Assembly: GCA_048939015.1 (NCBI GenBank)
Contig: JBHLPW010000055.1
Location: 1-31,300 of the forward strand
Direction of reading: 5' to 3'
DNA from: Promethearchaeota archaeon
GTDB lineage: Archaea > Asgardarchaeota > Lokiarchaeia > Sigyniarchaeales > SOKP01
Length of the DNA: 31,300 nt
Below, in pieces: positions 4,585-22,038 of this stretch. Both the position numbers and the translations under genes were made by a program. Position 1 is the first letter of the stretch; each line of letters begins with the position of its first letter. The notes under the pieces are model-generated. The model was not told the DNA's origin. It searched no databases and worked only from the letters and a program-made list of their open reading frames with translations.

Positions 4585-5529
4585 GTGCTAATTTGCTTAA
4601 AAAGTATGGCTAAAATGACTTATACAGAAACTATTCGTGAAAAATCATCCAAAAATGAGATAATTATTAGTCCAACTAAAGAATTAGAACCCTCAGATGG
4701 TAGTTTTCTTCAATTTGTGTTGATTACCTTTGCATTTTCATGGTTAATATGGCTACCAGGTTCATTTTTCTCACTAAATTTGGGAGAAACTCTATATTCA
4801 ATTAATGCATTCATAATAATAGGATCCTTCGGACCATTCATAGCTAGTTTTTACTTAACTTATAAGCAGAGTGGTCAGTATGGAGTTATAGCCTTATGGA
4901 AATCAGGATGGCATTGTGAGAAAAAAATATTTTTAATAATTTCTATAGTTTTAATCCCTGTAATTTGTGGCTTAGCTCTTTATATATCAAGTTTTAATGA
5001 AAGAATTAGTATAAGTACCTATTTAACAGGATATCGATCACAATATGGTTATTTGGCTTTAGAGATTGTAGCAATCTACTTTTTTGGTGGTCCTTTTCAA
5101 GAAGAATTTGGCTGGAGGGGTTTTGCACTAAAAAAGCTCCAAACAAGATGGAACGCCCTAGAATCTAGTATAATCCTCGGAGGTATATGGAGTGTTTGGC
5201 ATTTTCCATTGTTTTTTATACCTGGAACATTATATTATAACCAATCTTTCTTTAGCTTTACTACTTCTGTACTTGGTCTATCTATAATTTTCACTTGGAT
5301 ATATAACAACTCGAATGGAAGTATTTTAGCATCAATGCTATTCCATACATCCGTAAATACGACGCAAGTATTGTTTCTACAAAAATTCTCGTTCTGGAGC
5401 ACCTTTTATTTTGTAATTATTTTAGATATTGTTATGCTTCTTATTTTAGGAATATATGGCAAAGAAGAGTTAAGATGGTCTAAGAATAGAGTAAAAATCT
5501 ATACAAACCTCTTTAGACATAAATATTAA
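4585..5529 (+). CDS. CPBP-family intramembrane glutamic endopeptidase (type II CAAX protease/Abi)
   Basis: EEFGWRG, WSVWH and LFHTSVN motifs; multiple TM helices. The likely start is the ATG at 4606 or 4615. Confidence 0.9.
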   Translation: MLICLKSMAKMTYTETIREKSSKNEIIISPTKELEPSDGSFLQFVLITFAFSWLIWLPGSFFSLNLGETLYSINAFIIIGSFGPFIASFYLTYKQSGQYGVIALWKSGWHCEKKIFLIISIVLIPVICGLALYISSFNERISISTYLTGYRSQYGYLALEIVAIYFFGGPFQEEFGWRGFALKKLQTRWNALESSIILGGIWSVWHFPLFFIPGTLYYNQSFFSFTTSVLGLSIIFTWIYNNSNGSILASMLFHTSVNTTQVLFLQKFSFWSTFYFVIILDIVMLLILGIYGKEELRWSKNRVKIYTNLFRHKY

Positions 5530-5671
5530 ATCTCATCTTGATAGTGATTATAATAAAGGTAATTTTACTTTATTGGAAAAAATTTATTAATTAAAACAGA
5601 CACTTATCCTTTAGTTTTTTATTTTAATTCCTGAATTATAATTAAATAAAATTTGAGCGGCGAAGTATTTA

Positions 5672-6616
5672 ATGACCATAAAATTAGATAACGATTTCTA
5701 TATCAAAAAAAAAGCAAAATTAATGAAAGACTTCAATAAATACATATCTTACATACCTAAATTACTTAAAGGGCAGTATGATGCTGATAAAATAAATAGT
5801 ATTATCGAGCAAATGAGTGAGGAATTTGAATCCCTAATTCCCAAAATACCGTATATTGGAGGATATTTAAATTACTATACTCGTGTTCTAATCCAAATCA
5901 TATCTAATCTCGCAATTTTTCGAACCTTAGAAAAAGAAGGTTGGATATATCGAGAAATCGGGGAATTATTTTACGAATTCGTTGATATCCACCAAAGAAT
6001 CAGAAAGGAAAAATATGAAAAAAGTGGTACGGATCCATCTAATATTATGTTTGAACCTCATGTTGTTAATCAAGCGAAATTCATAGCAGAAACTTCCCAA
6101 AAAAGGGCTTTTCCTTATGATTGGGTATTAGAATTTGTTGAAGGTGATGGTAGATCATTTGAATACGGTATTGACATTACTGAATGTGGAGTCTATAAAA
6201 TATTCAAAGAATTTGGTGCTGAAAAATACGTACCTCTCCAGTGCGTGAATAGAATCCGTGAAGCACAGATTTTTGGATATGGAGTATTCCGCACTCAAAC
6301 TCTTGCGACCGGAGCTCCTTCATGTGACTATAGGTATACAAAAACATTGAAAACGCCTCATAAAATTACTGAAGAAGAAGTGACTCACTATAAAGAAAAA
6401 AAGATCTGTTTGGTATGCAAAGGTCATATTGAAGGTTTTAATAACTATATATGTCCAAAATGTGAGGTCTTGTATTGTGGACATTGTGCTCAATCTTTAA
6501 TTGATTTAGAAAATACATGTTGGGTATGTAACGCTCCATTGGATGTCTCAATGCCTTCAAAACCTTATAAAAAAGAGGAAGATGAAACTTTAATCAAAAA
6601 GGGCTTTAAAAAATGA
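5672..6616 (+). CDS. L-2-amino-thiazoline-4-carboxylate hydrolase-like (V4R/H-NOX clan) domain fused to a C-terminal C4C4 RING-like zinc finger
   Basis: IPYIGG, YGIDITECG, C, RTQTLATGAPSCDYRY motifs. The C-terminus carries CxxC-x11-CxxC-x4-CxxC-x10-CxxC (6407-6529). Confidence 0.8.
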   Translation: MTIKLDNDFYIKKKAKLMKDFNKYISYIPKLLKGQYDADKINSIIEQMSEEFESLIPKIPYIGGYLNYYTRVLIQIISNLAIFRTLEKEGWIYREIGELFYEFVDIHQRIRKEKYEKSGTDPSNIMFEPHVVNQAKFIAETSQKRAFPYDWVLEFVEGDGRSFEYGIDITECGVYKIFKEFGAEKYVPLQCVNRIREAQIFGYGVFRTQTLATGAPSCDYRYTKTLKTPHKITEEEVTHYKEKKICLVCKGHIEGFNNYICPKCEVLYCGHCAQSLIDLENTCWVCNAPLDVSMPSKPYKKEEDETLIKKGFKK

Positions 6617-6793
6617 ACTAAAATAAAATATATTTTTGAATTAGTAGAATTGAAATTTAAAAAAAAAAATTACAGCTAACACTTACTTTAAGAATATTTC
6701 TTCTGTTATTTTAAAATTTTTAAATTAAATAGATTAAGATTCTCTATAAAACTCAAAAATTTTTTTTATATTTTTAAACTAATAACTTCATAG

Positions 6794-7285
6794 GTGCAAA
6801 TAATCTTGACTAATTCGAGAAAAAAATATTTAAAGCAATCCTGTAAATCAAAATATGAAGAATTCTTTGTAGATTCTGCACCTAATAAATTATTAGATTT
6901 ATATGAAGCACAGGTACATATAGATCAATATACCGTTGATTTCGGAATTGAAAAATATAAAATTGCTATTGAATGTGATAATATCCCATTAGATTATAAA
7001 ACACCTGATCAAAAGAAAAGTGATTTAAGAAAAACCAAGTTCTTAATCGATAATGGCTGGACAGTATTTCGGTTTACAGCTCAAGTGATATATTCTGGTG
7101 CAATTGTATGCCATAAAATGGTTGCCGACGAAATTGTTAAATATCAGCCGAAAGTAATGGATGTAAGGAAATTTTTATCTAATGAAGAAACAAATTTCGT
7201 AAATGAGAGACTTTCCAATGTTGATATCATAACTTCACCTACTTTTAGAAATGAAATAAGAAAATTTGATAGAAGAAAGCAATAA
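6794..7285 (+). CDS. DUF559/Vsr-like PD-(D/E)XK nuclease-fold protein
   Basis: Pattern S..E...Q..I..Y.VDF...KIAIECD...Q...D..K..FL...GWTVFRF. The real start may be TTG 6806, behind an AGGTG RBS. Confidence 0.72.
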   Translation: MQIILTNSRKKYLKQSCKSKYEEFFVDSAPNKLLDLYEAQVHIDQYTVDFGIEKYKIAIECDNIPLDYKTPDQKKSDLRKTKFLIDNGWTVFRFTAQVIYSGAIVCHKMVADEIVKYQPKVMDVRKFLSNEETNFVNERLSNVDIITSPTFRNEIRKFDRRKQ

Positions 7286-7291
7286 TAATTT

Positions 7292-7567
7292 TTAAAAAGA
7301 AGGAAATTTAATAACAGGTCTATAGATTTTAAATTCAGTCATGAAATTTTTGTCAAATTCTTGCTTTAAAATCCTTTTATAGTCAGGATCTCTGTCATCA
7401 AATGGAATTTTTTCTTTCCCTGAATAAATGTCAGGAGATTTATAAGTTCTGCAGAGTTTTGAGAAAGGAATCACAAGATTTGAAATATCTGTATCTTGCT
7501 CTAGGATGTTTTGAGAAGACTTTTCACCAATTTCATGAAATAATTTTTCCAATTTTCTTGTACTCAT
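7292..7567 (-). CDS. Hypothetical protein, 91 aa, co-transcribed with the RHH gene
   Basis: AGGTGA RBS just upstream; 15 nt gap from the upstream stop; protein-like composition. Confidence 0.65.
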   Translation of the reverse strand: MSTRKLEKLFHEIGEKSSQNILEQDTDISNLVIPFSKLCRTYKSPDIYSGKEKIPFDDRDPDYKRILKQEFDKNFMTEFKIYRPVIKFPSF

Positions 7568-7582
7568 TAAATTTTCACCTTT

Positions 7583-8008
7583 TTACTCTTTTACAATTAA
7601 TTTACCTCTAAACCGGAGTTGAACTCCAAGTTTTTCTAATTTATTCTTATAATCAAATATTATTTCTCTAAGAAGTTTTCGACTTATTCCGAGTTGTTCT
7701 GCTAAGATATCCTCTTCGATCTCATTAAATAACTCAGAATAACGTATTAATTTTTGGATTGAATCTTGAATTACTTGGTTGTAATCCGTTATTTCAATTT
7801 CTCTTGTAATATCAGTTAGATCAATGTCATAATTACTTTTTAATAATTCTGGATTTCCTTCAATCCAATTGTGGACAATATTACGAACAGTTTCAGAACG
7901 AGATTGTTTCCTTTTATCAGCCATCAAGTTGATTACTTTATCATCAAATGCATCTATGCTGAATGTAATCCTAGATAAATCAGATGATTTTTTTGGTTCT
8001 GATGGCAT
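7583..8008 (-). CDS. Ribbon-helix-helix (CopG-like) DNA-binding protein with a probable C-terminal (winged) HTH
   Basis: RITFSID strand, helix A, then SRSETVRNIV is a classic RHH. The C-terminal ILAEQLGISRKLLREII followed by a beta-hairpin looks like a wHTH. Confidence 0.72.
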   Translation of the reverse strand: MPSEPKKSSDLSRITFSIDAFDDKVINLMADKRKQSRSETVRNIVHNWIEGNPELLKSNYDIDLTDITREIEITDYNQVIQDSIQKLIRYSELFNEIEEDILAEQLGISRKLLREIIFDYKNKLEKLGVQLRFRGKLIVKE

Positions 8009-8046
8009 TTTTTTATCCTACCGACAAAAATTTCTTGCTTATTATG

Positions 8047-8176
8047 ATCATTTTTTGCGCATATTTAAATATTTGCACAAATGATGGATTAATGCATCAC
8101 TGAAGATGCATAGATTTATAAAGGAATAGGATCATATAATATTCATATACCATATGTGTATCATATGAATATTATA
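8047..8176. promoter_or_regulatory. Divergent promoter region with three inverted repeats
   Basis: Imperfect IR at 8047-8085 centred on atatttaaatat; perfect atgcatc-N6-gatgcat at 8092-8111; perfect 14-bp arms tataatattcatat-N14-atatgaatattata at 8135-8176. Confidence 0.6.
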
Positions 8177-8183
8177 CCCTCAT

Positions 8184-8834
8184 GTGTGTGAAATGTTAGA
8201 ACTTTATACCCCTCAATATGAACAAATCAACACGAAAGAACGTATCACCATTGATTTAATAAAAGATGGTCAAGATTTTTTACAACAGTTTGATATTAGA
8301 GAAGAATTTTTGCTTGATACAATTTCATTAGTCTATAAATATCTAAGAAATAATGGAAAAATACCTCATAATCTGTATAAATTTTTTGTAGCCGCATATT
8401 ATATTATTTCAAGACATCCATTTTCGTTTCCTGCTCATGAAACTAAGAAAGAATTTTGTTACAAATTTAGTCTTCCTATAAGTTCCTTAGATTATTGTGT
8501 AGAAAAAATTACAAATTCACTAAATTATATCAAAATCTTGGATGATATGAATTTCCCCTATTTTATTGATCCTAAAAGAGATATTAGCTTAAAATTCATA
8601 AAAAATATGATTAAAGCCAAAGTAGAGAAGGCAATGATGAGTTTTCTAGTATGGAATCAGCCGATAAATTCGCAAATATTAACAGAAGAACTTGTAAATG
8701 AGGCAATTTTTGACCAAAACGCTTTTCCTGAAGAATTATTAAGACAATTATTTGAGATTGCCTATGGATATGTCGAAAACGAGTTTTTGGATTACAATCA
8801 GTATGTAAAAATGCAAAAAAAATATTTCATATAA
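8184..8834 (+). CDS. Conserved hypothetical protein with a TFIIB/cyclin-box-like helical repeat
   Basis: FL.QFDI.EE....ISLVYKYL...FFVAAYYIISR...ETKKEFC..F.L..SSL resembles a TFB core repeat (AAalYiacR...rT..Eia). No Zn-ribbon. The likely start is the ATG at 8193. Confidence 0.55.
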   Translation: MCEMLELYTPQYEQINTKERITIDLIKDGQDFLQQFDIREEFLLDTISLVYKYLRNNGKIPHNLYKFFVAAYYIISRHPFSFPAHETKKEFCYKFSLPISSLDYCVEKITNSLNYIKILDDMNFPYFIDPKRDISLKFIKNMIKAKVEKAMMSFLVWNQPINSQILTEELVNEAIFDQNAFPEELLRQLFEIAYGYVENEFLDYNQYVKMQKKYFI

Positions 8835-9041
8835 AAAATATAAGTTCTAATGTACTTTCTGTAAATTAATCAACTCGTCTATATGCTTTTTTTATTTAAA
8901 TCTTCTCTTTTATATTATTAGAGTAAAGTGAAAAATTCTTTTAAATGAAAGAATCTTCTTTCTTTTAATTAAGAATTTTCAATTGAAAAGAAATTCACCC
9001 TATAACATAGGTTTCAAACATCATATAAGAGATAAGGAACT

Positions 9042-11162
9042 ATGCTAAATTCAAGATCTGAAGAATTAACGTATGTGGATCACCTTATAGATGAAGTGAA
9101 ATTTGAAGAGGCACTAGCGATACTCAAAGATTTGGGAAATAAAGGTGAATTTTCACTCAAAGATCAGTTGTCAACGCTTCTTTTGAAAGGAAAGATATGT
9201 TTGTATAAACAACAATATCAAGATGCCCTAAAAATCGGTGAACAAGCATATCAGATGAGTCAAGAATTAGGATTAGTACCTGAATCAGTCAAAGCTCTTA
9301 TAGGAAATGCCTTTATAGGATTTATAGGGAATCTTGATAAGGCATTTATATATATTAACGATGCTGAAAAAAGATTGAATTCTATTTCAGAAGATCCTTC
9401 GACACGAAAGCTAAGAAGAGATTTGCTATTTATTAAATCCTGGCTCTTATACTTGAAAGGTAATATTGATGATGCGGAAGAATCAGCACGAGAATGTCTA
9501 AGATTAACTGAAAAAGAAAAGTTAGGTAACAAACTTGACTTAGCAAACAACTATATTTTAATTAGTTATATTTATTTAAACCAAAGCGACTTTAATTTTG
9601 TTAGAATCCTTGATTTTGCCAAGAAAAGTATGGCGATTATGGAAGAATTAGAATTTGATATAGGCATCTCAACAAGTTCCAATTTAGTTGCTCAAGTCTA
9701 TTATGCTCTATTAGTATTAAGAGTTTATAGATCTAAGGGAGGTAAACGGGTCTTCATATCTGAAGAAGACCTCAATCAGGGTTTAATATTCATTAAAAAA
9801 TGGGTATCATCTAAGCAGATTAGTAATCGAGACAAAATGGTAAATTTTAATGCTTTAGGATGGATATATTATCATAAGGGTGAAATAGACAGTAGTATAA
9901 AAAACCTCAAGCAAGCAATGGTACTAGCAAAGGAAGAAAAACGAGATGGATTTTTGGCTATCATCTTTTTTGGTTTGGGATATGCATATAGAATGAAAGG
10001 AAAATATGATCAATCTATTGAAACTACTAAATCAAGTTTGGTACTTGCTGAAAAGGTCGGAAATAATAATATAATAGTTAACTCACTAATACTACTTGTT
10101 TTTTTACACCTTGATAAAAATTCTCGCGAACAAGCTCAATCATATTTAATGCAAGCAGAAAGATACTATGAACAACTTCAAACAAAATCTATAAAATTAA
10201 ACTATTTAGCAGGAAAAGCATTGATGTTAAAAACTAGTGGTAGATCGAGAAACCGTGCAGAAGCAGAATCATTACTAAGAAAAATCCTGGAGGATCATGA
10301 AGTTGTTCCGGAGATGTTTACTATGGCTCTTATTAGCCTCTGTGAATTATATCTAGAAGATCTAAATTTATTCAATAATCTGGAACTATTAGAAGATATA
10401 AACCCACTGATTATACAAATGCTTGAATATGCAGAGGCAAGACAAACTTATCTATATTTTGCAGAAGCCAAATTATTACAAGCTAAACTTGCATTAGTAC
10501 AAATGAATACAAAGGAAGCAGAAAAAATATTGGTTGAGGCTCAACACATTGCTGAAGCTCATAACTATAAATTACTAAGCATGAAAATCTCAAGTGAACA
10601 TGATACATTGTTGGCGCAATTAGATGTTTGGAATGAACTTAAAAGAACAAATGCCCCAATTTCGGAACGTGTGAAATTGGCTTCCATTGATGGTGTTATT
10701 GATCGATTAAAGAGAAAGCGTACTGTAGAAGCCCCTAAGTTGGTTGATGAAAAACCTACTTTACTACTGATAATTACGGAGGGCGGGGTTTTAATTTTCT
10801 CTTATGCATTTACAGATGAATGGAAATTCGATGAACAGCTTTTTGGAGGATTTTTAACGGCTTTTAATTCTATTAGTGATGAGGTATTTTCTGAGGGACT
10901 TGATCGTGTTAAGTTCGGTCAACATACAGTCCTTATAGAACCCGTAGGGGATTTTTCAGTTTGTTATTTATACAAAGGACAGACCTATCTAGCGAAGCAA
11001 AAACTAGGCAAATTTTCAGAAAGGATTCAAAAAATAACTTCCATCTGGCAAACTCTCGAGAAATATTCCCAGACTAATCAAGTTCTTGAGATTAATGATA
11101 ATGCTTCACTTGAATCTCTCATAACAGAAATTTTTGTTAGCAAAAAGTATTATTCCACATAA
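9042..11162 (+). CDS. TPR-repeat protein with a C-terminal longin-like domain
   Basis: Repeated LG.IY...G..D.A...L..A..LA TPR motifs. The C-terminal LLLIITEGGVLIFSY...LFGGFLTAFNSISDEVFSEGLDRVKFGQHTVLI fits a longin-type bb-a-bbb-aa pattern. Confidence 0.8.
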   Translation: MLNSRSEELTYVDHLIDEVKFEEALAILKDLGNKGEFSLKDQLSTLLLKGKICLYKQQYQDALKIGEQAYQMSQELGLVPESVKALIGNAFIGFIGNLDKAFIYINDAEKRLNSISEDPSTRKLRRDLLFIKSWLLYLKGNIDDAEESARECLRLTEKEKLGNKLDLANNYILISYIYLNQSDFNFVRILDFAKKSMAIMEELEFDIGISTSSNLVAQVYYALLVLRVYRSKGGKRVFISEEDLNQGLIFIKKWVSSKQISNRDKMVNFNALGWIYYHKGEIDSSIKNLKQAMVLAKEEKRDGFLAIIFFGLGYAYRMKGKYDQSIETTKSSLVLAEKVGNNNIIVNSLILLVFLHLDKNSREQAQSYLMQAERYYEQLQTKSIKLNYLAGKALMLKTSGRSRNRAEAESLLRKILEDHEVVPEMFTMALISLCELYLEDLNLFNNLELLEDINPLIIQMLEYAEARQTYLYFAEAKLLQAKLALVQMNTKEAEKILVEAQHIAEAHNYKLLSMKISSEHDTLLAQLDVWNELKRTNAPISERVKLASIDGVIDRLKRKRTVEAPKLVDEKPTLLLIITEGGVLIFSYAFTDEWKFDEQLFGGFLTAFNSISDEVFSEGLDRVKFGQHTVLIEPVGDFSVCYLYKGQTYLAKQKLGKFSERIQKITSIWQTLEKYSQTNQVLEINDNASLESLITEIFVSKKYYST

Positions 11163-12378: not shown

Positions 12379-13209
12379 TTAACTTTCTAAAAAATCTAAA
12401 ATAATTTTATTAACTTCAGGAGCCCTTGAAAGTGTCATAAAGTGACCCGCTTTTTCTATAATTTTTAGTGTGCTATTAGGTATTTTTTCATTTATTTCCA
12501 TCATTACTGATTTAGGTGTTAATCTATCGTGTGAAGCAGCAATCAACAATGTTTCATTTCTAATTTGGTTTAACTTTTCTAATGTATAATGAGATTTCAT
12601 GGCTTCAGCTTGATTAATGATATCCTGAGGTCTTGAAGGATTAATAGCACTTTCCTTAATCAAGCTTTCTGCAGAAAACTGGTTGAAGAATAACTTATTT
12701 GGATTATTTTTCAATTCTTTTTGGAAATTCTGATGAAATCTCCATCTTAAACCCTCCCAAAAAGCATTCTCAGGATTTAATTTAAGTAAGTCTATCTCAT
12801 GAAGTCTATTATTTTTAATAATCTCAACCCATTCAGTATCAGGTCTACCATAATTAGTTGAGATTAATATTAGTTTATCTAAAAACTCAGGGTAAGACAA
12901 GGCGAAATGTTGGGCAATCATTCCTCCAAAACTTCGACCTATTAAGTGAATTTTACTAATCTGAAGAAAATCCATTAAGCCCTTTATATCATCTACAAAC
13001 ATTTTCATAGAGTAGGGATAATTAGGTCTATCAGATTTTCCAGTTCCTCTTAGGTCAATAGTAATAGTTTTGAATTTTTTGCTTAACTCTTTTGTCTGAG
13101 GTTTCCAAACTTCCTTTTTTGCGCCAAAACCGTGAATAAATATTATTGGAAACCCAGTTCCTCTAATCTCATAAGATATATTTATACCATTAACATATGC
13201 AGAGCTCAT
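12379..13209 (-). CDS. Alpha/beta-fold hydrolase
   Basis: HGF oxyanion motif, DLRGTGKS, nucleophile elbow GRSFGG, HD and AGH triad residues. Confidence 0.9.
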   Translation of the reverse strand: MSSAYVNGINISYEIRGTGFPIIFIHGFGAKKEVWKPQTKELSKKFKTITIDLRGTGKSDRPNYPYSMKMFVDDIKGLMDFLQISKIHLIGRSFGGMIAQHFALSYPEFLDKLILISTNYGRPDTEWVEIIKNNRLHEIDLLKLNPENAFWEGLRWRFHQNFQKELKNNPNKLFFNQFSAESLIKESAINPSRPQDIINQAEAMKSHYTLEKLNQIRNETLLIAASHDRLTPKSVMMEINEKIPNSTLKIIEKAGHFMTLSRAPEVNKIILDFLES

Positions 13210-13386: not shown

Positions 13387-13989
13387 ATGGAATTAATGCC
13401 TGTTTATAAAAATATTGGGGAATTCCTTGAATTTATTAATATTAGCAACGAAAAATTCACTCTCTTTGAGTGGAAACCACTAAGATCTATGAGACGATTC
13501 GATTTAGACTTAAATATTGTGAAAGAAAATCCTATTTCTGACATATTTTTCCATAAAGATAAGGGAAATATGAAAATTGTGTACATAAGACTACATAATC
13601 TCTTATACACAGTAGGAGCAAGTCCAAAAGTTCAATATCAGCTACTTGAAGCATTGCTAGAATATGTAGATTTGAAGTTTAATGAAATGTATGATGTAGA
13701 AGTAATATTATCATATGGGGATTTCTCTCCAGGTCTTTTTAATGAATTTAATGGTCAGATTGAGAATATCATAAAGAATTTCGCAGATTTAGATTTAGTT
13801 AAAAGAATTCAGGTAGAATGCAGAGCTTGTAAAACAGTTCTCCCTCTGTTTATAAAAAGGAGCGTTATTGAGCACGCAGAGAGTCATCCAGTCCCAATTG
13901 TATATTCTCATAAGGGACACGCTATACTTTGCTTTATTGACCGAAATTATCAACATAGAGGAGTCGAACTAGTAAATATTACAGGCTAG
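13387..13989 (+). CDS. Hypothetical protein: longin-like domain plus C-terminal CxxC...HxxH zinc-binding module
   Basis: MKIVYIR..NLLYTVGA...LLEALLE.V...F.EMY matches the longin C-terminal half. The tail reads CRAC...YSHKGH..LCFIDRNY..RGVE. Confidence 0.55.
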   Translation: MELMPVYKNIGEFLEFINISNEKFTLFEWKPLRSMRRFDLDLNIVKENPISDIFFHKDKGNMKIVYIRLHNLLYTVGASPKVQYQLLEALLEYVDLKFNEMYDVEVILSYGDFSPGLFNEFNGQIENIIKNFADLDLVKRIQVECRACKTVLPLFIKRSVIEHAESHPVPIVYSHKGHAILCFIDRNYQHRGVELVNITG

Positions 13990-14049
13990 TTAAAACGTAA
14001 ATCCTACTTAATTAGTAACTCCTTATAAATCCTCAATAATATATTTTAA

Positions 14050-15192
14050 ATGTATAATAAAAATATTATATATATGGAAGAAAATCAGAATTCCGATGAT
14101 AAATTCTATATCTTCGAGGATATAGTAAAGAAGACAAAAACAGGAATTACTTTTCCAAAAAGTTTAAGGGAGTTGTTATTCGAAGAAGATACTGAAGTCT
14201 TTTTCAGATTAGTCGTTCCTAATGAAAAAGATAAAATTATATTAGAATTTTTATCTGAAGAACAAGTAAAAGAACTATCAGAGAAATTAAAAGCAAAAAA
14301 ACCTAAAACAGAGAGAGCTCAAAAAGTTCCAGGGGAAGCAAAACCCTCAAAAGTTAAGAAATCAGCCGGTCCAAGCCCTGCTTGGGGAGAATATTTTGTT
14401 TATGATTTTGAAGCCAAGGATAAAGTAATGCCAATTCTTGAATCAGCATTTTATAAATTTGCGGAAAAACCTCTTAATTTAGAGGATGCTATGGGACGTG
14501 TAAAATATGCGCTCGTATCATTTCTTTCCTCAACGAAAACAGAAAATGCAAAACTGTATTTTGCTATTGAAAAATTCTTAATCGATATAATTGACCATTT
14601 TAACCAACCTAATTTACTCGACTGGATTTTTGAAAAGATTATACCTAATATAGAGAGCAAATTTCTTTATGAGCAGGCTCTTTTAGAATTAGTCGAAGCA
14701 AGTTTAAAATTTAAAAGATGGGAGAAAGCTGAAATATACATTTTTTATGTTTTAAAGAATATTGATAGTTATTCTAAATCTGAAATGTATAACATTATGA
14801 ACAGCTTTAAACAGTTGGTTAAAAAAGTCAAATATGTTGAAAGATCAGATAAAATTGACATTTTACTTAAAGAAAAACTAATGGAATACGGCCAAGATCT
14901 TGATGTAGATTATAAAATCCAAATAATTGAGTTCTTAGAGGATTTAAAGTATATCGAATTAGCTTATGATTTAGCTAAAGATGTTCAAGTAAATTTACCT
15001 CCAGATAGTTTGAAAATTGAGGATATAAGGAAATTAGTCCGAAGATTACATATTACTCCTATTGCTGAAAACAAACCTGAGTCTAGTATGGATTTTGAAG
15101 AAGATGATTCATCAGAAGAAGATGATTCATCAGAAGAAGATAATACATCAGAAGAAGATGATATATCAGAAGAAGATGATAATACAGATTAA
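14050..15192 (+). CDS. Protein with AbrB/SpoVT-like N-terminal domain, Lys-rich linker, helical-repeat domain and acidic tail
   Basis: KKTKTGITFPKSLRELL...EVFFRL....KIILE resembles an AbrB swapped hairpin; amphipathic helical C-half; tail of 5 EEDxxS-type units. The start may be the ATG at 14074. Confidence 0.55.
   Translation: MYNKNIIYMEENQNSDDKFYIFEDIVKKTKTGITFPKSLRELLFEEDTEVFFRLVVPNEKDKIILEFLSEEQVKELSEKLKAKKPKTERAQKVPGEAKPSKVKKSAGPSPAWGEYFVYDFEAKDKVMPILESAFYKFAEKPLNLEDAMGRVKYALVSFLSSTKTENAKLYFAIEKFLIDIIDHFNQPNLLDWIFEKIIPNIESKFLYEQALLELVEASLKFKRWEKAEIYIFYVLKNIDSYSKSEMYNIMNSFKQLVKKVKYVERSDKIDILLKEKLMEYGQDLDVDYKIQIIEFLEDLKYIELAYDLAKDVQVNLPPDSLKIEDIRKLVRRLHITPIAENKPESSMDFEEDDSSEEDDSSEEDNTSEEDDISEEDDNTD
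15097..15186 (+). repeat. 5 x 18-bp coding tandem repeat (gaagaagatgattcatca consensus)
   Basis: Units start at 15097, 15115, 15133, 15151 and 15169. The first two are identical and the later units diverge. Confidence 0.92.
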
Positions 15193-16466
15193 TCTTCTTT
15201 ATTTTTTTTCTCTTCTTCTTGAGACTTTCTGAGTTCTTCTTCAACTCTTTTCATTTCTTCTTCCTGAATCTTCTGCTGTTTTTGTTCAATTGATTTCTGT
15301 TTTAGTTCTAATTCAACTTGAGATAACTCTTTTTCACGCTCAATTAATTCTTCTTTTAACTTAAGTGCTTTTTCTCTCTCTAAAATTTCTTTCTCTTCTA
15401 ATTCTTTTTCTTTTTTCTCTATTTCAATTTTTTTCTTTTTGATTTCTAAGTCTTTCTTTTTTAATTCAATTTCTTTATCAATAATTTCTTCCTCTTTCTT
15501 CTTAAGCTTTTTTGGAAGTTTTTTTTCTGCAACTTCTCCAATTCCACTTTCTTTTTCCAAAATCTCTTCCTTAAGTTTGAGAACTTCTTCTTTCTTTTGA
15601 ATTACTTTTTCTTCAATCTCCTTTTCTTTTTCCTCTAATTCTAGTTTTCTTTTCTTTATCTCTAATTCTTTTTTCTTTAACTCAAATTCTTTATCCAGAA
15701 TTTTTGATTCTTCTTTTTCTAGAATTTCTTCTTTTTCTTCTCCAATAGTAGATTCAGAGATTTCAGTTTCTTTTTTTAAGGATTCTGTTTTAATACTATC
15801 TTCCTCCACAATTTCTCCAATTTTATCAACAGAAACAATAGATTTTAAGATTTGATCTATTAGCTTCTTTAGTTCTTCATTTTCTGGAATTTCTGCAACT
15901 TCTTTTGCATATTCAGTTAGAATTTTTGTCATTATTTTTGGACATCCCTCACCAATGGATTTTAAGGCTTGAACTGCTTTTTCTACAATGAACTCTTTTT
16001 CATCATTTAACTTTTCGAGTATTGTTCTAATTAGAGACTCATCATCGATGCATGCATCTCCACCAGCCATATAGATTAACATTTGTAATGCAGCTTCTCG
16101 AACATTAGGATCTTCTGATTTTATTAATTCTTCACTATATGGAAGAAAAAGATCACTTTCCTCCTCACAAATTGTTTTTAATAATAAAAGAAAAGTATAT
16201 CGTAATACAGAATCTTTTTTTGATAAATTTTCTAATAAAGAGGGAATATCAATCACAAGATTTTCAATTAAAAATCTTAATACAGTCCGACCACCGTGGA
16301 GAGTCATTAATGTTTCTATAATATCTTCTAGTCTATTTAAATAATCAACTTGTGAAGAATCTCCAAGATGTAGGGCAATAATGTTTACAGCATCATCAAA
16401 TCTTCCGTCTTTCACAAAATCTTTAATTTGATTGATTTCTACACTTATTTTTTCGTCATCACTCAT
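15189..16466 (-). CDS. HEAT/ARM-repeat head plus long Lys/Glu coiled-coil protein
   Basis: HEAT motifs LENLSKKDSVLR, SEDPNVREAALQML and LNDEKEFIVEKAVQAL. The C-terminal ~190 aa is a K/E coiled coil containing a duplicated ~55-aa module. Confidence 0.78.
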   Translation of the reverse strand: MSDDEKISVEINQIKDFVKDGRFDDAVNIIALHLGDSSQVDYLNRLEDIIETLMTLHGGRTVLRFLIENLVIDIPSLLENLSKKDSVLRYTFLLLLKTICEEESDLFLPYSEELIKSEDPNVREAALQMLIYMAGGDACIDDESLIRTILEKLNDEKEFIVEKAVQALKSIGEGCPKIMTKILTEYAKEVAEIPENEELKKLIDQILKSIVSVDKIGEIVEEDSIKTESLKKETEISESTIGEEKEEILEKEESKILDKEFELKKKELEIKKRKLELEEKEKEIEEKVIQKKEEVLKLKEEILEKESGIGEVAEKKLPKKLKKKEEEIIDKEIELKKKDLEIKKKKIEIEKKEKELEEKEILEREKALKLKEELIEREKELSQVELELKQKSIEQKQQKIQEEEMKRVEEELRKSQEEEKKNKED

Positions 16467-16487
16467 TTAAATCCCCTTTTTAAACAT

Positions 16488-17441
16488 TTATTCAACCCAT
16501 ATTATATAAAATTCGTTATAAATTCGAGTTATAAAATTAAGAATTAATCGTAAATCCCTATATCTTAATACTGATTTTTCTCCTTCTTCAGTGTAAGTAT
16601 TTGTTAAGAGATTTACAAATAAAACTATTTCTAAATTTTGATTTTCATCTTCATTTAAATTTATTTGTTTACAATATTGTGTTAAAGCGTTAAGATCTTC
16701 CCAGAATGTATTCCAAAAATACTTATCTGCTTTAGAATCATTAGAAGATGGTACTTTTGAAATTTGAGTAAGTACATCATAGGGCACTTTAAGTGTTATT
16801 TCTACTTGCTTTGAAGGGATGTAATTTAATTTAACCTCAGGAAAATAAATCCCCGCATAGAGTTTACAAACCCCATTCAATAACTCAAGACTTACCATAC
16901 TTTCTCTACTAGCATTACAGAGGACATATTTTTCTTTAAAAAAAACAATATGAATTCGATCTTCAAATTTGAATAATAAATAATTATTGGTTTTTAGATA
17001 TTCAAATTTTTCATCCCTATTATATATCCTGTCGTCGAATATTTTAAACGCATCTTCCCATTTATTAAGAGAAATAAATTTATTCAATTTGCGATAATCT
17101 CCATGAAAGAAGACATCTAAAAAATCAATCAAATACAAATAGCTATCATATGGACGATAAATTACTGTTTTGTTTCTGAAAAATCTTTCAACAACACCTT
17201 TATGGACACTGTAACAAAATTTTGGTAAATCATCTAGGGTAAGACCACTTTTAATTCGAAGCTTTAATAAATGTCTTCTCGAACATTTTGGTTGTAAGGT
17301 GCACGCTATTCTGTCTACTTGACACTCCTCAAAACATAACTTATCTATAGTATCCCTTAATAATTCAATTAACTCTGATTTATTTTTTGTGTCCGATTCT
17401 TTGTTTAAATACTTTATAATATGATCTGGTTGGAGTGGCAT
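16488..17441 (-). CDS. Hypothetical protein with an N-terminal Cys cluster
   Basis: Long ORF with C-x3-C-x6-C-x5-C plus FCYSVH; lies 21 nt upstream of the HEAT/coiled-coil gene. Confidence 0.7.
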   Translation of the reverse strand: MPLQPDHIIKYLNKESDTKNKSELIELLRDTIDKLCFEECQVDRIACTLQPKCSRRHLLKLRIKSGLTLDDLPKFCYSVHKGVVERFFRNKTVIYRPYDSYLYLIDFLDVFFHGDYRKLNKFISLNKWEDAFKIFDDRIYNRDEKFEYLKTNNYLLFKFEDRIHIVFFKEKYVLCNASRESMVSLELLNGVCKLYAGIYFPEVKLNYIPSKQVEITLKVPYDVLTQISKVPSSNDSKADKYFWNTFWEDLNALTQYCKQINLNEDENQNLEIVLFVNLLTNTYTEEGEKSVLRYRDLRLILNFITRIYNEFYIIWVE

Positions 17442-17647
17442 TTCGATTGATTTTAAATTATAATTCTATCTATCTTATTCTATGTAATAGAAATAATTAA
17501 GTCTATTATTTTTTTTTATTTAACTCAAATATTTTATAAGATGAGTAGAATAGAGATATATTAAATTATAAAAAATTATTAATTAACATTTCTTCTATTG
17601 TTATAATAATAAACATGTCCAATCATTTCAATTCGGTATAATAGAAT

Positions 17648-19234
17648 ATGTTAAGACAAATACATATTTTCTTTAATGGAAATCTCATATACGTAAAAGA
17701 TTATGCTACGGCTCTTGGAAGTGAAGAATTAAATAATGTAAAAACAATAATACAAAAATATATAGATATGCCCATGCCGGGGAAGACTTTTCAACGTAAT
17801 TTAACAGATTTTCAAATTTTCCATAGGGCATCTGATAATTTGTATTTTTTATTCATAACAGATATTATTGACTCACACCAATATATTGATACTATATTGA
17901 TAAAAACAATTAATGAATTTAAAGACCTATTTCCTAATCCTGAAAGACTGAAAGAAAATATACCCGAAAAAGAAGATTTTAATAACTTCTTGAATCAAAT
18001 TCAAAGAGATCTTCACTCCAAAATAGTATTAGTAGGACCATCTAATTCAGGGAAAACAACTTTATTTAATATGTTAAAAAGTGGCGAAGAAAAAACAATT
18101 ATGGAAGTCGCAAAATCAGCTAGTTTTGAAATCGATGGTATAAGTTTTGATTTATGGGATTTCCAATTAAAAGATAATTTTTCATTACTATGGTCAAAAT
18201 TCATTAAAGGCTCAGATTTAGTCATTCTTCTTTTCAATCTTGCTAATTATAATTTAAAAATGATAAACCATTTCTTAAATCTACAGAAAAGAGAAAGTGC
18301 TTATTCTAAATTATTAATAATTGGAAATAAAAGAGATTTAGTTGAGGATACAGATCTAAAAAGAATAAAAAATGAATTAAACATTCCCGATTTTAAGGAA
18401 ATCTCTTTAAATAGTATTGAAGCAAGAGCTCAAATTCATGATTTAATTGTAGAAACTCTTTGTTTAAAAGAAAAAAAGCCTACTAATTTTGAAAATTTAA
18501 TAAAAGATGCAGATAATTTGGTTTTGGAAGGAAAAAATGTTCAAGCTTTAGCCAAGTATAAAGAACTAATAACTTTATCCGAATCTTATCACGATATCAT
18601 GGCTACAAAATCGATAGAACAAAAAATATCAGAACTCAATAATAAAATCCAAAAACAATATGAAAGAAGGAAGGAAACAGAAAAAAAGATGGATTTTGAG
18701 ATTTCAAAACCTTTATTGTTTTCAAGAAAAATTACCGTAAAGCCTCTTCCTCAAGAAGGAATCGAAGTTGAAACTCTACTACCCGAACAAGAAATGACGG
18801 AGGAAGAATTGCCACGTGCGCCATCAAAACCTAGTGCATTAGTTTCTTTTCAAAAATTGGATAAAGAAATAGATATGAAGCCCCTTAAAATTCCAAAACC
18901 TCCTCTAAAGGTAATAAAGAAAGCTTCTATTCCTCAGGAAATTGAAAAGGAAATTCCTCCCCCAAAAATTGAGAGTATAGAAAAACCCAAAGCGAAGATG
19001 CCATTAGAGATATTTGGAGAACATGAAGATATAAAAAAGGAAATAGAGAAACCACTTGTTATCGATTTTACAAAAGAATTACAAAAAATGATAATTAGTA
19101 AAGGAAGTTCTCTTAGTATTGGTTTGTGTGAAAATTTAATATTAGAATTAGAAAAATCTTTAGGAAGACCTATAACACTCGAGGATGTAGAAATGGCCGC
19201 CAATTTCTTTGTTAAACAAGAAAAATTAACTTAA
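17648..19234 (+). CDS. Longin domain - Ras-superfamily small GTPase - helical bundle - Pro-rich linker - C-terminal helical domain
   Basis: N-terminal MLRQIHIFFNGNLIYVKDY...LYFLFITD longin pattern; G1 GPSNSGKT, degenerate G3 (WDFQL), G4 NKRD, G5-like ISL; a MIT/TPR-like helix bundle; PxxP-rich segment. Confidence 0.82.
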   Translation: MLRQIHIFFNGNLIYVKDYATALGSEELNNVKTIIQKYIDMPMPGKTFQRNLTDFQIFHRASDNLYFLFITDIIDSHQYIDTILIKTINEFKDLFPNPERLKENIPEKEDFNNFLNQIQRDLHSKIVLVGPSNSGKTTLFNMLKSGEEKTIMEVAKSASFEIDGISFDLWDFQLKDNFSLLWSKFIKGSDLVILLFNLANYNLKMINHFLNLQKRESAYSKLLIIGNKRDLVEDTDLKRIKNELNIPDFKEISLNSIEARAQIHDLIVETLCLKEKKPTNFENLIKDADNLVLEGKNVQALAKYKELITLSESYHDIMATKSIEQKISELNNKIQKQYERRKETEKKMDFEISKPLLFSRKITVKPLPQEGIEVETLLPEQEMTEEELPRAPSKPSALVSFQKLDKEIDMKPLKIPKPPLKVIKKASIPQEIEKEIPPPKIESIEKPKAKMPLEIFGEHEDIKKEIEKPLVIDFTKELQKMIISKGSSLSIGLCENLILELEKSLGRPITLEDVEMAANFFVKQEKLT

Positions 19235-19409: not shown

Positions 19410-20906
19410 ATGAGTGCTATAAAAGAACTTCGCGATCATTTTGATGAAATAATGAGTTTGAACTATGCTCGCGCTGCTTTGAATTGGGATCAGGAAGTAA
19501 ATATGCGTAATTATAAATCTTTAGATGGTAAGGCAAAACAAATATCACTATTATCAAAATTAATTCATCAGAGAGAAACCTCGGAAAAAGTCGGAAAATT
19601 AATAAAAGAAGCAGAAAAAATTTCTGACCTTAATGAGATCGACAGTGCCTTATTGCGAGAGACTAAAAGGGAATATGATCTTGCGACTAAGTTACCAGAG
19701 AAATTAGTTGCTGAAATCGCGGAAACAAGTATAAAAGCTTCTGGTATTTGGAGAGAAGCTTATACTAAAAGCGATTTTTCACTCTTTAAAGAAATACTGG
19801 AAAAGACAGTTGAATTACAAAGAGAACAAGCAGAAAAATTAGCGACACACCCAGATATGTATTCCACATTAATAGATTTATATGAACCAAGTGCAACCTA
19901 TGATTGGATTGCTAATATATTTAATCCAATAAAATCAAAAATAGTAGATGTTGTAAAGAAGTTGAATTCATCCTCAGATAAGCCTGACGATTCAATTTTA
20001 CATAAAAATTATGATGTAGATAAACAATTCGAACTTAGTTTTGAGATAATTAAAAAATTCAATTATGATCTCGGATATGGTCGACAAGACAGATCTACGC
20101 ATCCATTTACAACAGCACTTGCTTCCGAAGATACACGTATAACTACAAGAACGAAGGAAGACTTTCTAAATGAATGTATTTTTGGAACTATTCATGAGTG
20201 TGGTCATGCTCTTTATGAAATGGGGATTAAAAAAGAACTTCATGATACAATATTATGTACTGGTACTTCAATGGGGATTCATGAGTCTCAATCAAGATTG
20301 CTGGAAAATATTGTTGGTAGAAGTAAAGAATTCTGGTCCTATTGGTATCCTACGTTCCAAAAATATTTCCCGGAGAACTTAAAGAATTATCCAATGGAGG
20401 AATTTCATCGAGCAGTGAACTGTGTCCAACCTTCGTTTATTAGAGTTAATGCTGATGAAGTCACTTATGGTTTACATGTTATTCTAAGATTTGAGATCGA
20501 AAAAGACATGATTGAAGGGAAAGTTCAAATAAATGAATTACCTGAATTATGGAATTCTAAAATGGAAGAATACCTTGGAATCACACCCCCTACAGACAAG
20601 GAGGGAGTATTACAAGATATGCATTGGGGCGGTGGAGCTATTGGATACTTCCCTACTTACTTTTTAGGGAGTCTTTATTCTGCTCAAATTTATTCAAAAG
20701 CTTTAGAAGCACATCCAAACTTACACGAGGATTACAAAAAAGGTGAGTTTTCTAACTTATTGAGCTACTTAAGAGAAAATATTCATCAGCATGGAAGCGT
20801 ATATAGAGCCAATGATTTGATAAAAAGGGTAACTGGAGAAGATTTAAATCCAAATTACTTTTTCGAATATGTAAAGAATAAATTCTATCCTATTTATAAA
20901 CTCTAA
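19410..20906 (+). CDS. M32 family carboxypeptidase (carboxypeptidase Taq-like)
   Basis: HPF, DTRITTR, HECGH, HESQS, IRVNADE and GYFPTY motifs. Confidence 0.95.
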   Translation: MSAIKELRDHFDEIMSLNYARAALNWDQEVNMRNYKSLDGKAKQISLLSKLIHQRETSEKVGKLIKEAEKISDLNEIDSALLRETKREYDLATKLPEKLVAEIAETSIKASGIWREAYTKSDFSLFKEILEKTVELQREQAEKLATHPDMYSTLIDLYEPSATYDWIANIFNPIKSKIVDVVKKLNSSSDKPDDSILHKNYDVDKQFELSFEIIKKFNYDLGYGRQDRSTHPFTTALASEDTRITTRTKEDFLNECIFGTIHECGHALYEMGIKKELHDTILCTGTSMGIHESQSRLLENIVGRSKEFWSYWYPTFQKYFPENLKNYPMEEFHRAVNCVQPSFIRVNADEVTYGLHVILRFEIEKDMIEGKVQINELPELWNSKMEEYLGITPPTDKEGVLQDMHWGGGAIGYFPTYFLGSLYSAQIYSKALEAHPNLHEDYKKGEFSNLLSYLRENIHQHGSVYRANDLIKRVTGEDLNPNYFFEYVKNKFYPIYKL

Positions 20907-21036: not shown

Positions 21037-22038
21037 TTGAAATTGTTGAAGACATATCAAGGAAATAAATTAAATCCGGTTGATTATACTTATATTAAAA
21101 ATTTGAGTGAAATTATTGGAAAACCAATACCTTCTCTGAAATATGTAAAACATGAATCATTTGGATTTATTTCAGAAAATGGATACATAACTGCCTTGAG
21201 TTTATTTGGAAAAGAATTAATTGAGCTTCCTGATGGTTTGGATAAATTAAAAATGTTAACTACTCTAAATCTTTGTAAAAATAATTTTACTTCTCTAAAT
21301 TTATCTATACTACATCTTAAAAATCTGCATACTCTAATTGTAAGAAATAATAATTTGAAAGTATTACCGGAATCAATAGGTAAAATAAATCAAATAGCCT
21401 ATTTAGATCTGCAGTCAAATCTTTTAGAGGATCTGCCAAATTCAATCGGAGAATTAAAGAAATGTGAGTTATTAAATTTAAATTATAATGCCTTGATTAC
21501 ATTACCCCCTCAAATAGGAAATTTGATTAATTTAAAGACTTTAGAGATTCAACATAATAAGTTGAAGGACATTCCAAAAGAGATTGGTTCTCTAATAAAG
21601 CTTGAGCATCTTTGGTTAAGTGATAATAAACTAAAAAACTTACCTTTAGAGATAGGTAATTTAAAAAATTTGAAAGAACTTTGGTTAAGATCTAATCTTC
21701 TTAGCTCAATACCTACAAGTATTTGTTTACTAGAAAATTTAACAGATCTTAGGGTATTCGAGAATAAAATTAGTTTAATTCCTGAATGCATAGATAAACT
21801 CTCTCATTTGACCAAATTAAACTTAAATTCAAATGATCTTAAATTTTTACCATGTAATATTGGATCTCTTAGAAATTTAGAAGAACTTATACTTTATGAG
21901 AATAATATTGCAGAGCTTCCTGAATCTATCATTAAGTTAAAAACATTAAAAAAAATTAATATTCGAAATAATCCAATAAACAGGAATTCATTGGTTCTCA
22001 AAGAATTAGAAAAGAAAGAGTGTCAAATTATTTTTTAA
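21037..22038 (+). CDS. Leucine-rich repeat protein
   Basis: About 11 tandem 23-aa repeats LxxLxLxxNxLxxLPxxIGxL; TTG start. Confidence 0.92.
   Translation: MKLLKTYQGNKLNPVDYTYIKNLSEIIGKPIPSLKYVKHESFGFISENGYITALSLFGKELIELPDGLDKLKMLTTLNLCKNNFTSLNLSILHLKNLHTLIVRNNNLKVLPESIGKINQIAYLDLQSNLLEDLPNSIGELKKCELLNLNYNALITLPPQIGNLINLKTLEIQHNKLKDIPKEIGSLIKLEHLWLSDNKLKNLPLEIGNLKNLKELWLRSNLLSSIPTSICLLENLTDLRVFENKISLIPECIDKLSHLTKLNLNSNDLKFLPCNIGSLRNLEELILYENNIAELPESIIKLKTLKKINIRNNPINRNSLVLKELEKKECQIIF

Follow-up and report, generated by a model that had tools for sequence, protein, structure and literature searches.

Do neighbouring genes for longin, HEAT-repeat and small-GTPase domains in an Asgard genome encode parts of one assembly, and if so, of what kind? 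The question was raised by a stretch of 31,300 nucleotides from a Promethearchaeota archaeon (contig JBHLPW010000055.1 of assembly GCA_048939015.1; the whole stretch is called the window below), in which five adjacent genes, P0001 to P0005, occupy positions 13387 to 19234. They encode a longin-like protein with a metal-binding domain (P0001), an alpha-solenoid protein (P0002), a HEAT-repeat protein with a coiled coil (P0003), a cysteine-cluster protein (P0004) and a longin domain fused to an Arf-like GTPase domain (P0005). Based on gene linkage in related genomes and on the domains of the five products, the block is interpreted here, with moderate confidence, as a functionally linked gene module of a Lokiarchaeia-type order, the products of which would form a soluble scaffold.

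Conservation of the gene block in related genomes

Forty relatives were searched with each of the five proteins, and open reading frame (ORF) maps of the loci were then compared. The homologues of P0001 to P0005 are written P1 to P5, with arrowheads for the direction of transcription; the family of the window is called f1, and the other families of the same order f2, f3 and f4. In f1, the order P1>P2> <P3<P4 P5> was found in 8 loci of the window's own genus and in eight further genera. All five genes were present in 13 of the 15 loci from these eight genera, and the block was found in 9 of 9 sampled genera.

The linkage extended beyond f1 in rearranged forms. In all 37 loci examined, from f1 to f4, P3 came directly after P4 in the same orientation. 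P5 was joined to P4 in four distinct arrangements, namely that of f1, <P3<P4 P2>P5> in G035 and G038 (P5 divergent from P4 through P2), P5>P4>P3> in G030 and G034, and the divergent <P5 P4>P3> in G026. The three genes of G030 and G034 were co-directional, and the ORFs of G030 were 15 nt apart or overlapping. P2 preceded P5 in the same orientation in G035, G038, G025, G032 and G028. Around the f2, f3 and f4 loci, no homologues of the genes that flank the block in the window were found, and since the linkage persisted in these families, the arrangement goes beyond chance. The chief evidence that the genes share a function is the adjacency network P1-P2-P5-P4-P3, which survived several rearrangements. 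A preliminary description of the locus had proposed that the genes belong together while naming co-location in a single genome as their only visible link; the proposal was borne out by linkage kept across families, and the stated restriction no longer holds, the neighbourhood being conserved order-wide in rearranged forms.

Absence of the genes was also recorded. Four genomes, 81-99% complete, were without orthologues of all five genes, save for a C-terminal P5 fragment in G280, and P3, P4 and P5 were absent together from G006. The latter genome, a single contig from the window's genus, kept P0001 together with a remodelled P0002 of 434 amino acids (aa) that was homologous only over 16-233 (L052, C1:3240000-3250000).

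A longin domain fused to a degenerate Arf-like GTPase

In P0005 (17648..19234, plus strand; 528 aa), residues 1-115 formed a longin domain and residues 117-270 an Arf-like G domain. These were followed by a helical hairpin (~280-345), a linker rich in Pro and Lys (346-470) and, at the C-terminus, a small, conserved helical domain (471-528). Residues 117-265 matched the Pfam family Arf (PF00025) with an E value of 1e-13 and 51.5 bits against a cut-off of 22.3. The G domain also matched Roc, Ras and SRPRB (SRPRB 1.2e-6, 28.4 bits against a cut-off of 25), and its PDB sequence matches were Arf3, Arl8 and Arf6 chains at 3e-10 to 2e-9. On these scores the G domain was assigned to the Arf family. 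A relationship to Rag GTPases was set aside, as Gtr1/RagA was not among the Pfam matches and the segment past switch II (LLWSKF) appears to resemble that of Arf1.

For the longin domain, a profile of the first 116 residues was built from the orthologues and three paralogues. In the PDB it matched AP-2 sigma (E 2.3e-4) in register, 19-101 on 19-101, and the next matches were VAMP7 and AP-3 sigma at 0.2-0.4. Clat_adaptor_s (PF01217) was the commonest Pfam family among the members (6 of 16, best 7e-4); on P0005 itself it reached an E value of 0.054 and 13.9 bits, and every member lay below the 22.5-bit cut-off. Based on the PDB profile match and the independent Pfam result, the N-terminal domain is most probably a longin, nearest to the sigma-adaptin type; the sigma-adaptin scores speak for the longin fold and for this closest subfamily but fall short of formal membership of the family. 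A language-model look-up with residues 1-116 returned SRP-alpha_N clusters at 0.76, a weak lead, and SRP-alpha_N was matched by one member of the P0005 longin family at 0.089.

The nucleotide-binding motifs of the G domain were unevenly kept. G1 (GPSNSGKT) and G4 (NKRD) were intact in P0005 and across f1. G3 read W-D-F-Q-L (DFQL for DxxG), and its glycine was absent in 17 of 17 orthologues. In three genomes of genus g2 the P-loop read D-R-Q, the Walker lysine being replaced, and G4 was lost in most orthologues outside f1, although it was kept as NKQD in the f3 locus L024. Residues W170, S179, L181, W182 and G188-S189-D190 of the interswitch and switch II were invariant among the orthologues. 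Taken with the lost catalytic motifs, these invariant residues suggested that an interaction surface is conserved while the GTPase cycle is not. An Arf-type N-terminal amphipathic or myristoylated helix was absent from P0005, as the N-terminus is occupied by the 115-residue longin domain, and no hydrophobic segment was detected in the protein. The C-terminal domain of ~55 residues was conserved among orthologues; its profile gave nothing significant against PDB sequences, and no sign of a histone-like end was obtained from that search.

Four longin-Arf-like fusions, P0005 included, were found in the source genome. Three longin-GTPase paralogues (G000 C70:28560-29537, C17:11302-12141 and C76:9408-10319) shared 28-30% identity with P0005 over the longin and G domains.

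A second, longin-like protein with a metal-binding domain

P0001 (13387..13989, plus strand; 200 aa) consisted of an N-terminal longin-like domain (~1-135) and a C-terminal CxxC...HxxH metal-binding domain (~138-200). The Pfam family Longin (PF13774) was matched by 9 of the 19 members of the P0001 family (E values up to 1, best 2.3e-4), and P0001 itself gave no Pfam Longin match. When P0001 was aligned to the P0005 longin profile with hhalign, a P value of 0.001 and a probability of 21% were obtained. The putative metal ligands C145, C148, H175 and H178 were invariant or nearly so in the family. The P0001 profile gave nothing significant against PDB sequences, and a language-model look-up in the Atlas returned only the protein's own unnamed clusters.

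Relatives of P0001 occurred in other settings. In f4, a protein of 270 aa was encoded immediately upstream of the P0002 homologue (L094:1661-2473, L095:5657-6466), and a P0001-type CxxC...GH...D-NF-RG metal domain stood at its N-terminus, in a different architecture. In genera g2 and g11, the P0001 homologue ended a run of genes for topoisomerase VI B, topoisomerase VI A and an unassigned protein of ~192 aa, with leucyl-tRNA synthetase adjoining (loci L041, L042, L044 and L045; e.g. L045:3986-4579, 4661-5239, 5236-6501 and 6517-8325). Two P0001 paralogues lay in tandem in G028.

Two helical-repeat proteins

P0003 (15189..16466, minus strand; 425 aa) carried a HEAT-repeat head (~1-215) followed by a coiled coil of ~200 residues. 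The head matched the Pfam models HEAT_2 (2.2e-8, 34.7 bits, cut-off 27.7), HEAT (7e-7, 29.3 bits, cut-off 23.5) and Cnd1 (5e-6), and the best PDB matches of its profile were alphaRep (6e-13), PH 2db0 (2e-12), INTS4 (2e-8) and CAND1 (2e-7). AP-2 alpha, AP-4 epsilon and AP-1 gamma were among the HEAT matches at 1e-3 to 1e-2; AP-2 alpha (1.3e-3) ranked only ~40th, behind alphaRep, INTS4, CAND1 and transportin. Adaptin_N was absent from the Pfam matches of P0003 and P0002. By these matches, the head is best described as genuine but generic HEAT. The coiled coil contained a conserved C-terminal segment in which E380, L381, E387 and K391 were invariant. The gap from P0004 to P0003, both on the minus strand, was 21 nt, and a purine run (GGGG) preceded the ATG of P0003.

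P0002 (14050..15192, plus strand; 380 aa) is convergent with P0003, and the stop codons of the two genes overlap. An AbrB/MazE-like N-terminal region (~25-70) is joined by a Lys-rich linker (78-108) to an alpha-solenoid of 12 helices (112-335), and the protein ends in an acidic tail (340-380). In the AlphaFold2 (AF2) model, the solenoid of 12 helices had a predicted local distance difference test score (pLDDT) above 90, and the N-terminus was modelled as two strands (27-29, 32-34), a helix (37-43) and two more strands (51-55, 64-68), with a pLDDT of 54-70 in the monomer. MazE_antitoxin (PF04014) was matched weakly by 1 of 18 family members (E 0.017), and K30, T34, P36 and R40 were invariant in the family. 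The isoelectric point (pI) of the basic linker was 10.4, and 23 of the 41 tail residues were Asp or Glu. The P0002 profile gave nothing significant against PDB sequences. The best shape match of the solenoid was the C-terminal half of VPS35 (Z 14.9, root-mean-square deviation (rmsd) 3.0 over 212 residues), a Z value within the range usual for helical repeats, and beta-COP (Z 10.5) and AP-2 alpha (Z 9.0) were among the other matches. The preliminary description had seen an AbrB-like, a helical and an acidic part in this protein: the helical part was predicted with confidence to be a solenoid, the acidic tail stood, and the AbrB-like N-terminus remained a weak assignment.

The helical repeats of the block were ~200-230 residues long (~215 in the P0003 head, ~230 in the P0002 solenoid), while adaptin trunks have ~600 residues.

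An Asgard-only cysteine-cluster family

P0004 (16488..17441, minus strand; 317 aa) contained a helical, cysteine-bearing N-terminal domain and two alpha/beta domains, and was modelled by AF2 with a pLDDT of 84 and a predicted template modelling score (pTM) of 0.82. Five cysteines were conserved (Cys5): C36, C40, C53 and C76 were invariant and C47 nearly so. P0004 had no significant match in Pfam, NCBIfam or PDB sequences. In structure searches with the whole model, the best E value in Foldseek (PDB) was 0.012, the best VIA match had Z 6.2 over residues 181-317 only, and the template modelling (TM) scores in the Atlas were at most 0.28. The shape matches were to generic alpha/beta folds (aminotransferase C-domains and type III secretion chaperones, Z ~5-6), with no longin among them. 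The family was matched in 215 of 301 genomes of the phylum, and it formed 111 clusters among 1.84 billion representatives, of which every named one was Asgard. Judged by this distribution, the P0004 family is specific to Asgard archaea.

These results support the folds read from the window in the preliminary description: a longin domain in each of two proteins, a coiled coil behind a HEAT head, a small GTPase, here of Arf-like type, and a cysteine cluster.

Outside the order, the gene directly 3' of the P0004 homologue and on the same strand encoded, in most sampled loci, a protein (830-1308 aa) whose giant coiled coil is flanked by a TrmB winged helix at the N-terminus and a conserved TrmB-like domain at the C-terminus (L053-L068; e.g. 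L058:4143-4970 and 4995-8915, L053:6846-7835 and 7943-11029). The P0003 profile gave no match to these giant TrmB coiled-coil proteins, and they were therefore treated as non-homologous neighbours. Their position next to the P0004 homologues would indicate that the pairing of a Cys5 protein with a long coiled-coil gene downstream is the older one; as judged from the sampled loci, the HEAT coiled-coil protein, the longin-GTPase and the AbrB-solenoid protein appear to have been joined to P0004 only in the Lokiarchaeia-type order. The source genome encodes shorter TrmB coiled-coil proteins elsewhere than in the block. The P0004/TrmB coiled-coil gene pair is undescribed and widespread in Asgard archaea, and in one family an extra coiled-coil gene of 340-360 aa lay ahead of it.

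Membrane segments, adaptor domains and complex prediction

No transmembrane-like segment was found in the five proteins, the maximal Kyte-Doolittle mean over 19 residues being 1.35. The mu-homology domain was absent from the Pfam matches of all five, and only generic GTPase models were matched in an NCBIfam scan. In complex prediction, P0005 1-275, P0003 1-215 and P0004 as partner gave scores of 0.40, 0.37 and 0.50 against 0.28 for a control with chain 1 replaced, which did not reach the required margin over the control and counts neither for nor against binding.

Discussion

The results are consistent with a four-part core, P0005, P0004, P0003 and P0002, that is conserved across the order and most likely encodes a soluble multi-protein scaffold. 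Because switch II is degenerate, P0005 would probably serve as a nucleotide-loaded or nucleotide-free platform and not as a cycling switch. P0004 would contribute an Asgard-only protein with a Cys5 metal or iron-sulphur site. P0003, with a HEAT head on a long coiled coil, would probably dimerise and is probably co-translated with P0004, and P0002 would add an alpha-solenoid flanked by an AbrB-like N-terminus and an acidic tail. In f1, P0001 with its longin and Zn domains would join the module. Longin and roadblock proteins are not known to function other than as dimers, which makes P0001 the obvious candidate partner for the P0005 longin. We infer the physical assembly of these products from the conserved linkage of their genes. 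The domains of DNA-binding type, in P0002 and in the P0004 neighbours of other Asgard classes, possibly point to a target other than a membrane.

Several observations weigh against a linked module and would fit independent proteins of eukaryotic-signature type that adjoin by inheritance or through a shared promoter region. Within f1, the M32 peptidase and SpoU genes were often syntenic beside the block; as these flanking housekeeping genes are syntenic too, the five-gene order of f1 may be plain synteny. In genus g2, the P2>P5> and P4>P3> pairs were separated by 10 kb (G025) to 88 kb (G032), P2 was encoded elsewhere in G030, G034, G026 and G037, and P0001 adjoined P0002 in f1 only, its homologues lying elsewhere outside f1. 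The joint gene losses are not independent evidence, since a single deletion could explain them, and the counts overstate independence because the compared genomes are related; moreover, the ORFs of the relatives were simple-script calls with start codons as called. Tran et al. 2024 (PMC10933270) describe GTPase-partner pairings as generally invisible in genome layout, the small-GTPase genes of MK-D1 generally not lying in operons with longin, roadblock or TRAPPC3 genes. Nevertheless, adjacency survived at least four rearrangements where the window's flanks were not found, P4 and P3 were adjacent without exception in 37 loci, and P5, P4 and P3 were co-directional and tightly spaced in G030. The lack of any common function is thus regarded as rather unlikely. 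Similar doubt applies to a nucleoid- or transcription-associated scaffold that tethers or organises DNA, with P0002 binding through its AbrB-like domain and basic linker. Such a role would suit the conserved K..T.P..R signature of the AbrB/MazE-like N-terminus and the linker pI of 10.4, the TrmB coiled-coil neighbours that tie the P0004 family to DNA-binding coiled-coil proteins in other Asgard classes, the match of P0003 to the condensin Cnd1 HEAT model, and the P0001 homologues beside topoisomerase VI genes in g2 and g11. However, the AbrB assignment is weak (E 0.017 in 1 of 18 members; pLDDT 54-70), AbrB-like domains also bind proteins, the Cnd1 match is generic HEAT, and no recognised DNA-binding domain was found in P0003, P0004 or P0005.

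The preliminary description had read the block as an adaptor or trafficking machine, and the corresponding explanation is a proto-adaptor or coat acting on membranes, in which two solenoids, two longins and the Arf-like domain would be homologous to the AP/COPI heterotetramer with Arf. Sigma/zeta-like longins and adaptin-like HEAT proteins have already been catalogued as Asgard eukaryotic signature proteins (10.64898/2026.10.28.762692). The parts list matches the AP/COPI core with Arf1 in number and kind: alpha-solenoids, two longins and an Arf-family G domain are present, two libraries placed the P0005 longin closest to sigma-adaptin and its alignment to AP-2 sigma was in register, adaptins appeared among the P0003 HEAT matches at 1e-3 to 1e-2, and beta-COP and AP-2 alpha appeared among the P0002 shape matches. 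The likeness weakens on closer comparison. The HEAT matches are generic, with adaptins ~40th, the solenoids are short, one third of the adaptin length, and all sigma-adaptin scores fell under the Pfam cut-off. There is no mu-homology domain, appendage, membrane anchor or amphipathic N-helix; the longin is fused to a G domain that is degenerate in its switch and has lost its P-loop in g2; P0001 is linked only in f1, and in f4 through its Zn domain; and the Cys5 protein and the AbrB-like domain have no adaptor counterpart. The generic HEAT, short solenoids, lack of transmembrane segments and degenerate G domain thus speak against the adaptor reading, which we judge improbable, and homology to AP/COPI appears to be limited to the longin and Arf-like parts. 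Still more doubtful is the bolder idea that a P0001/P0005 longin heterodimer, cradled by two short alpha-solenoids, fused to a permanently engaged Arf-like domain and tied through P0004 to a coiled-coil tether, is an extant relative of the form from which the AP/COPI/TSET adaptor core arose. The soluble, functionally linked scaffold module remains the interpretation that we favour.

Reports of longin-ArfL fusions in Lokiarchaeia go back to 2016 (Klinger et al. 2016, as cited in PMC4917890) and include those of Liu et al. 2020 (10.1101/2020.10.19.343400) and Tran et al. 2024 (PMC10933270); this literature counts five in Lokiarchaeum and several in MK-D1. P0005 has the same architecture, in which a longin stands N-terminal to an Arf-like G domain, but the P0005 group differs in its degenerate G3, the variable loss of G1 and G4, and a tail of hairpin, linker and C-domain. 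In the text that was searched, these papers make no mention of the conserved neighbourhood of P0005 with solenoid proteins and P0004, and no description of this gene neighbourhood was found in a coverage of the literature that was incomplete. A precedent for a conserved Asgard neighbourhood of a small GTPase with a longin/roadblock-type protein is the operon, described for most Asgard archaea, in which genes for a roadblock protein of LAMTOR1-like type, a Rab-like GTPase and a DENN protein are combined (Liu et al. 2020, 10.1101/2020.10.19.343400), although its proteins, GTPase family and range are different, the present block being confined to one order.

Two eukaryotic systems were also compared. 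In the receptor of the signal recognition particle (SRP), the SRX domain of SRalpha pairs with SRbeta, likewise a longin-like domain with an Arf-family GTPase; however, the block has neither the NG domain of SRalpha nor the transmembrane anchor of SRbeta, Arf outscored SRPRB by a wide margin, and the neighbours are unrelated to protein targeting. The C-terminal solenoid of retromer VPS35 gave the best P0002 shape matches (Z 14.9, 14.4 and 13.0; rmsd ~3 over ~210 residues), but such Z values are common for helical repeats, identity was 6-8%, and no VPS29 or VPS26 partner is encoded in the block.

Asgard genomes encode dozens of small GTPases and longin/roadblock proteins, for almost none of which a partner can be named. 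The cluster described here is one concrete order-wide pairing, in which a sigma-adaptin-like longin/Arf-like protein is accompanied by two solenoids and an Asgard-only cysteine-cluster protein. The products are soluble and moderate in size, which opens them to direct testing by co-expression. Their assembly, if it occurs, would show what combinations of longin, solenoid and Arf-like parts did before there were eukaryotic coats, or that such combinations had a non-membrane role. The P0004 family, widespread in Asgard archaea, unannotated and regularly placed ahead of a gene for a long coiled coil, deserves study for its own sake.

Other features of the locus

The five ORFs lie between two ordinary enzyme genes, an alpha/beta hydrolase (12379-13209, minus strand) and an M32 carboxypeptidase (19410-20906, plus strand), and the coordinates given for them in the preliminary description were exact. 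Between the divergent P0004 and P0005 lies an AT-rich spacer of 206 bp (17442..17647), which presumably holds both promoters. The G+C content of the window was 29%, and the source assembly of 4.86 Mb had 37 small-GTPase matches. The sequencing runs that contained the window were sediment metagenome DNA only, with no RNA run listed.

In genus g2, a beta-propeller-like protein of 341-389 aa with LVIVD/WD40-type repeats was encoded directly upstream of P4-P3 on the same strand (L025:2557-3726, L027:3300-4388, L029:2455-3480). Within the window, two further repeat proteins were encoded a few kb from the block: a 706-aa TPR protein with a MalT-like TPR region (9042-11162), and a 333-aa leucine-rich-repeat (LRR) protein (21037-22038), for which one weak LRR match was seen in locus L082.

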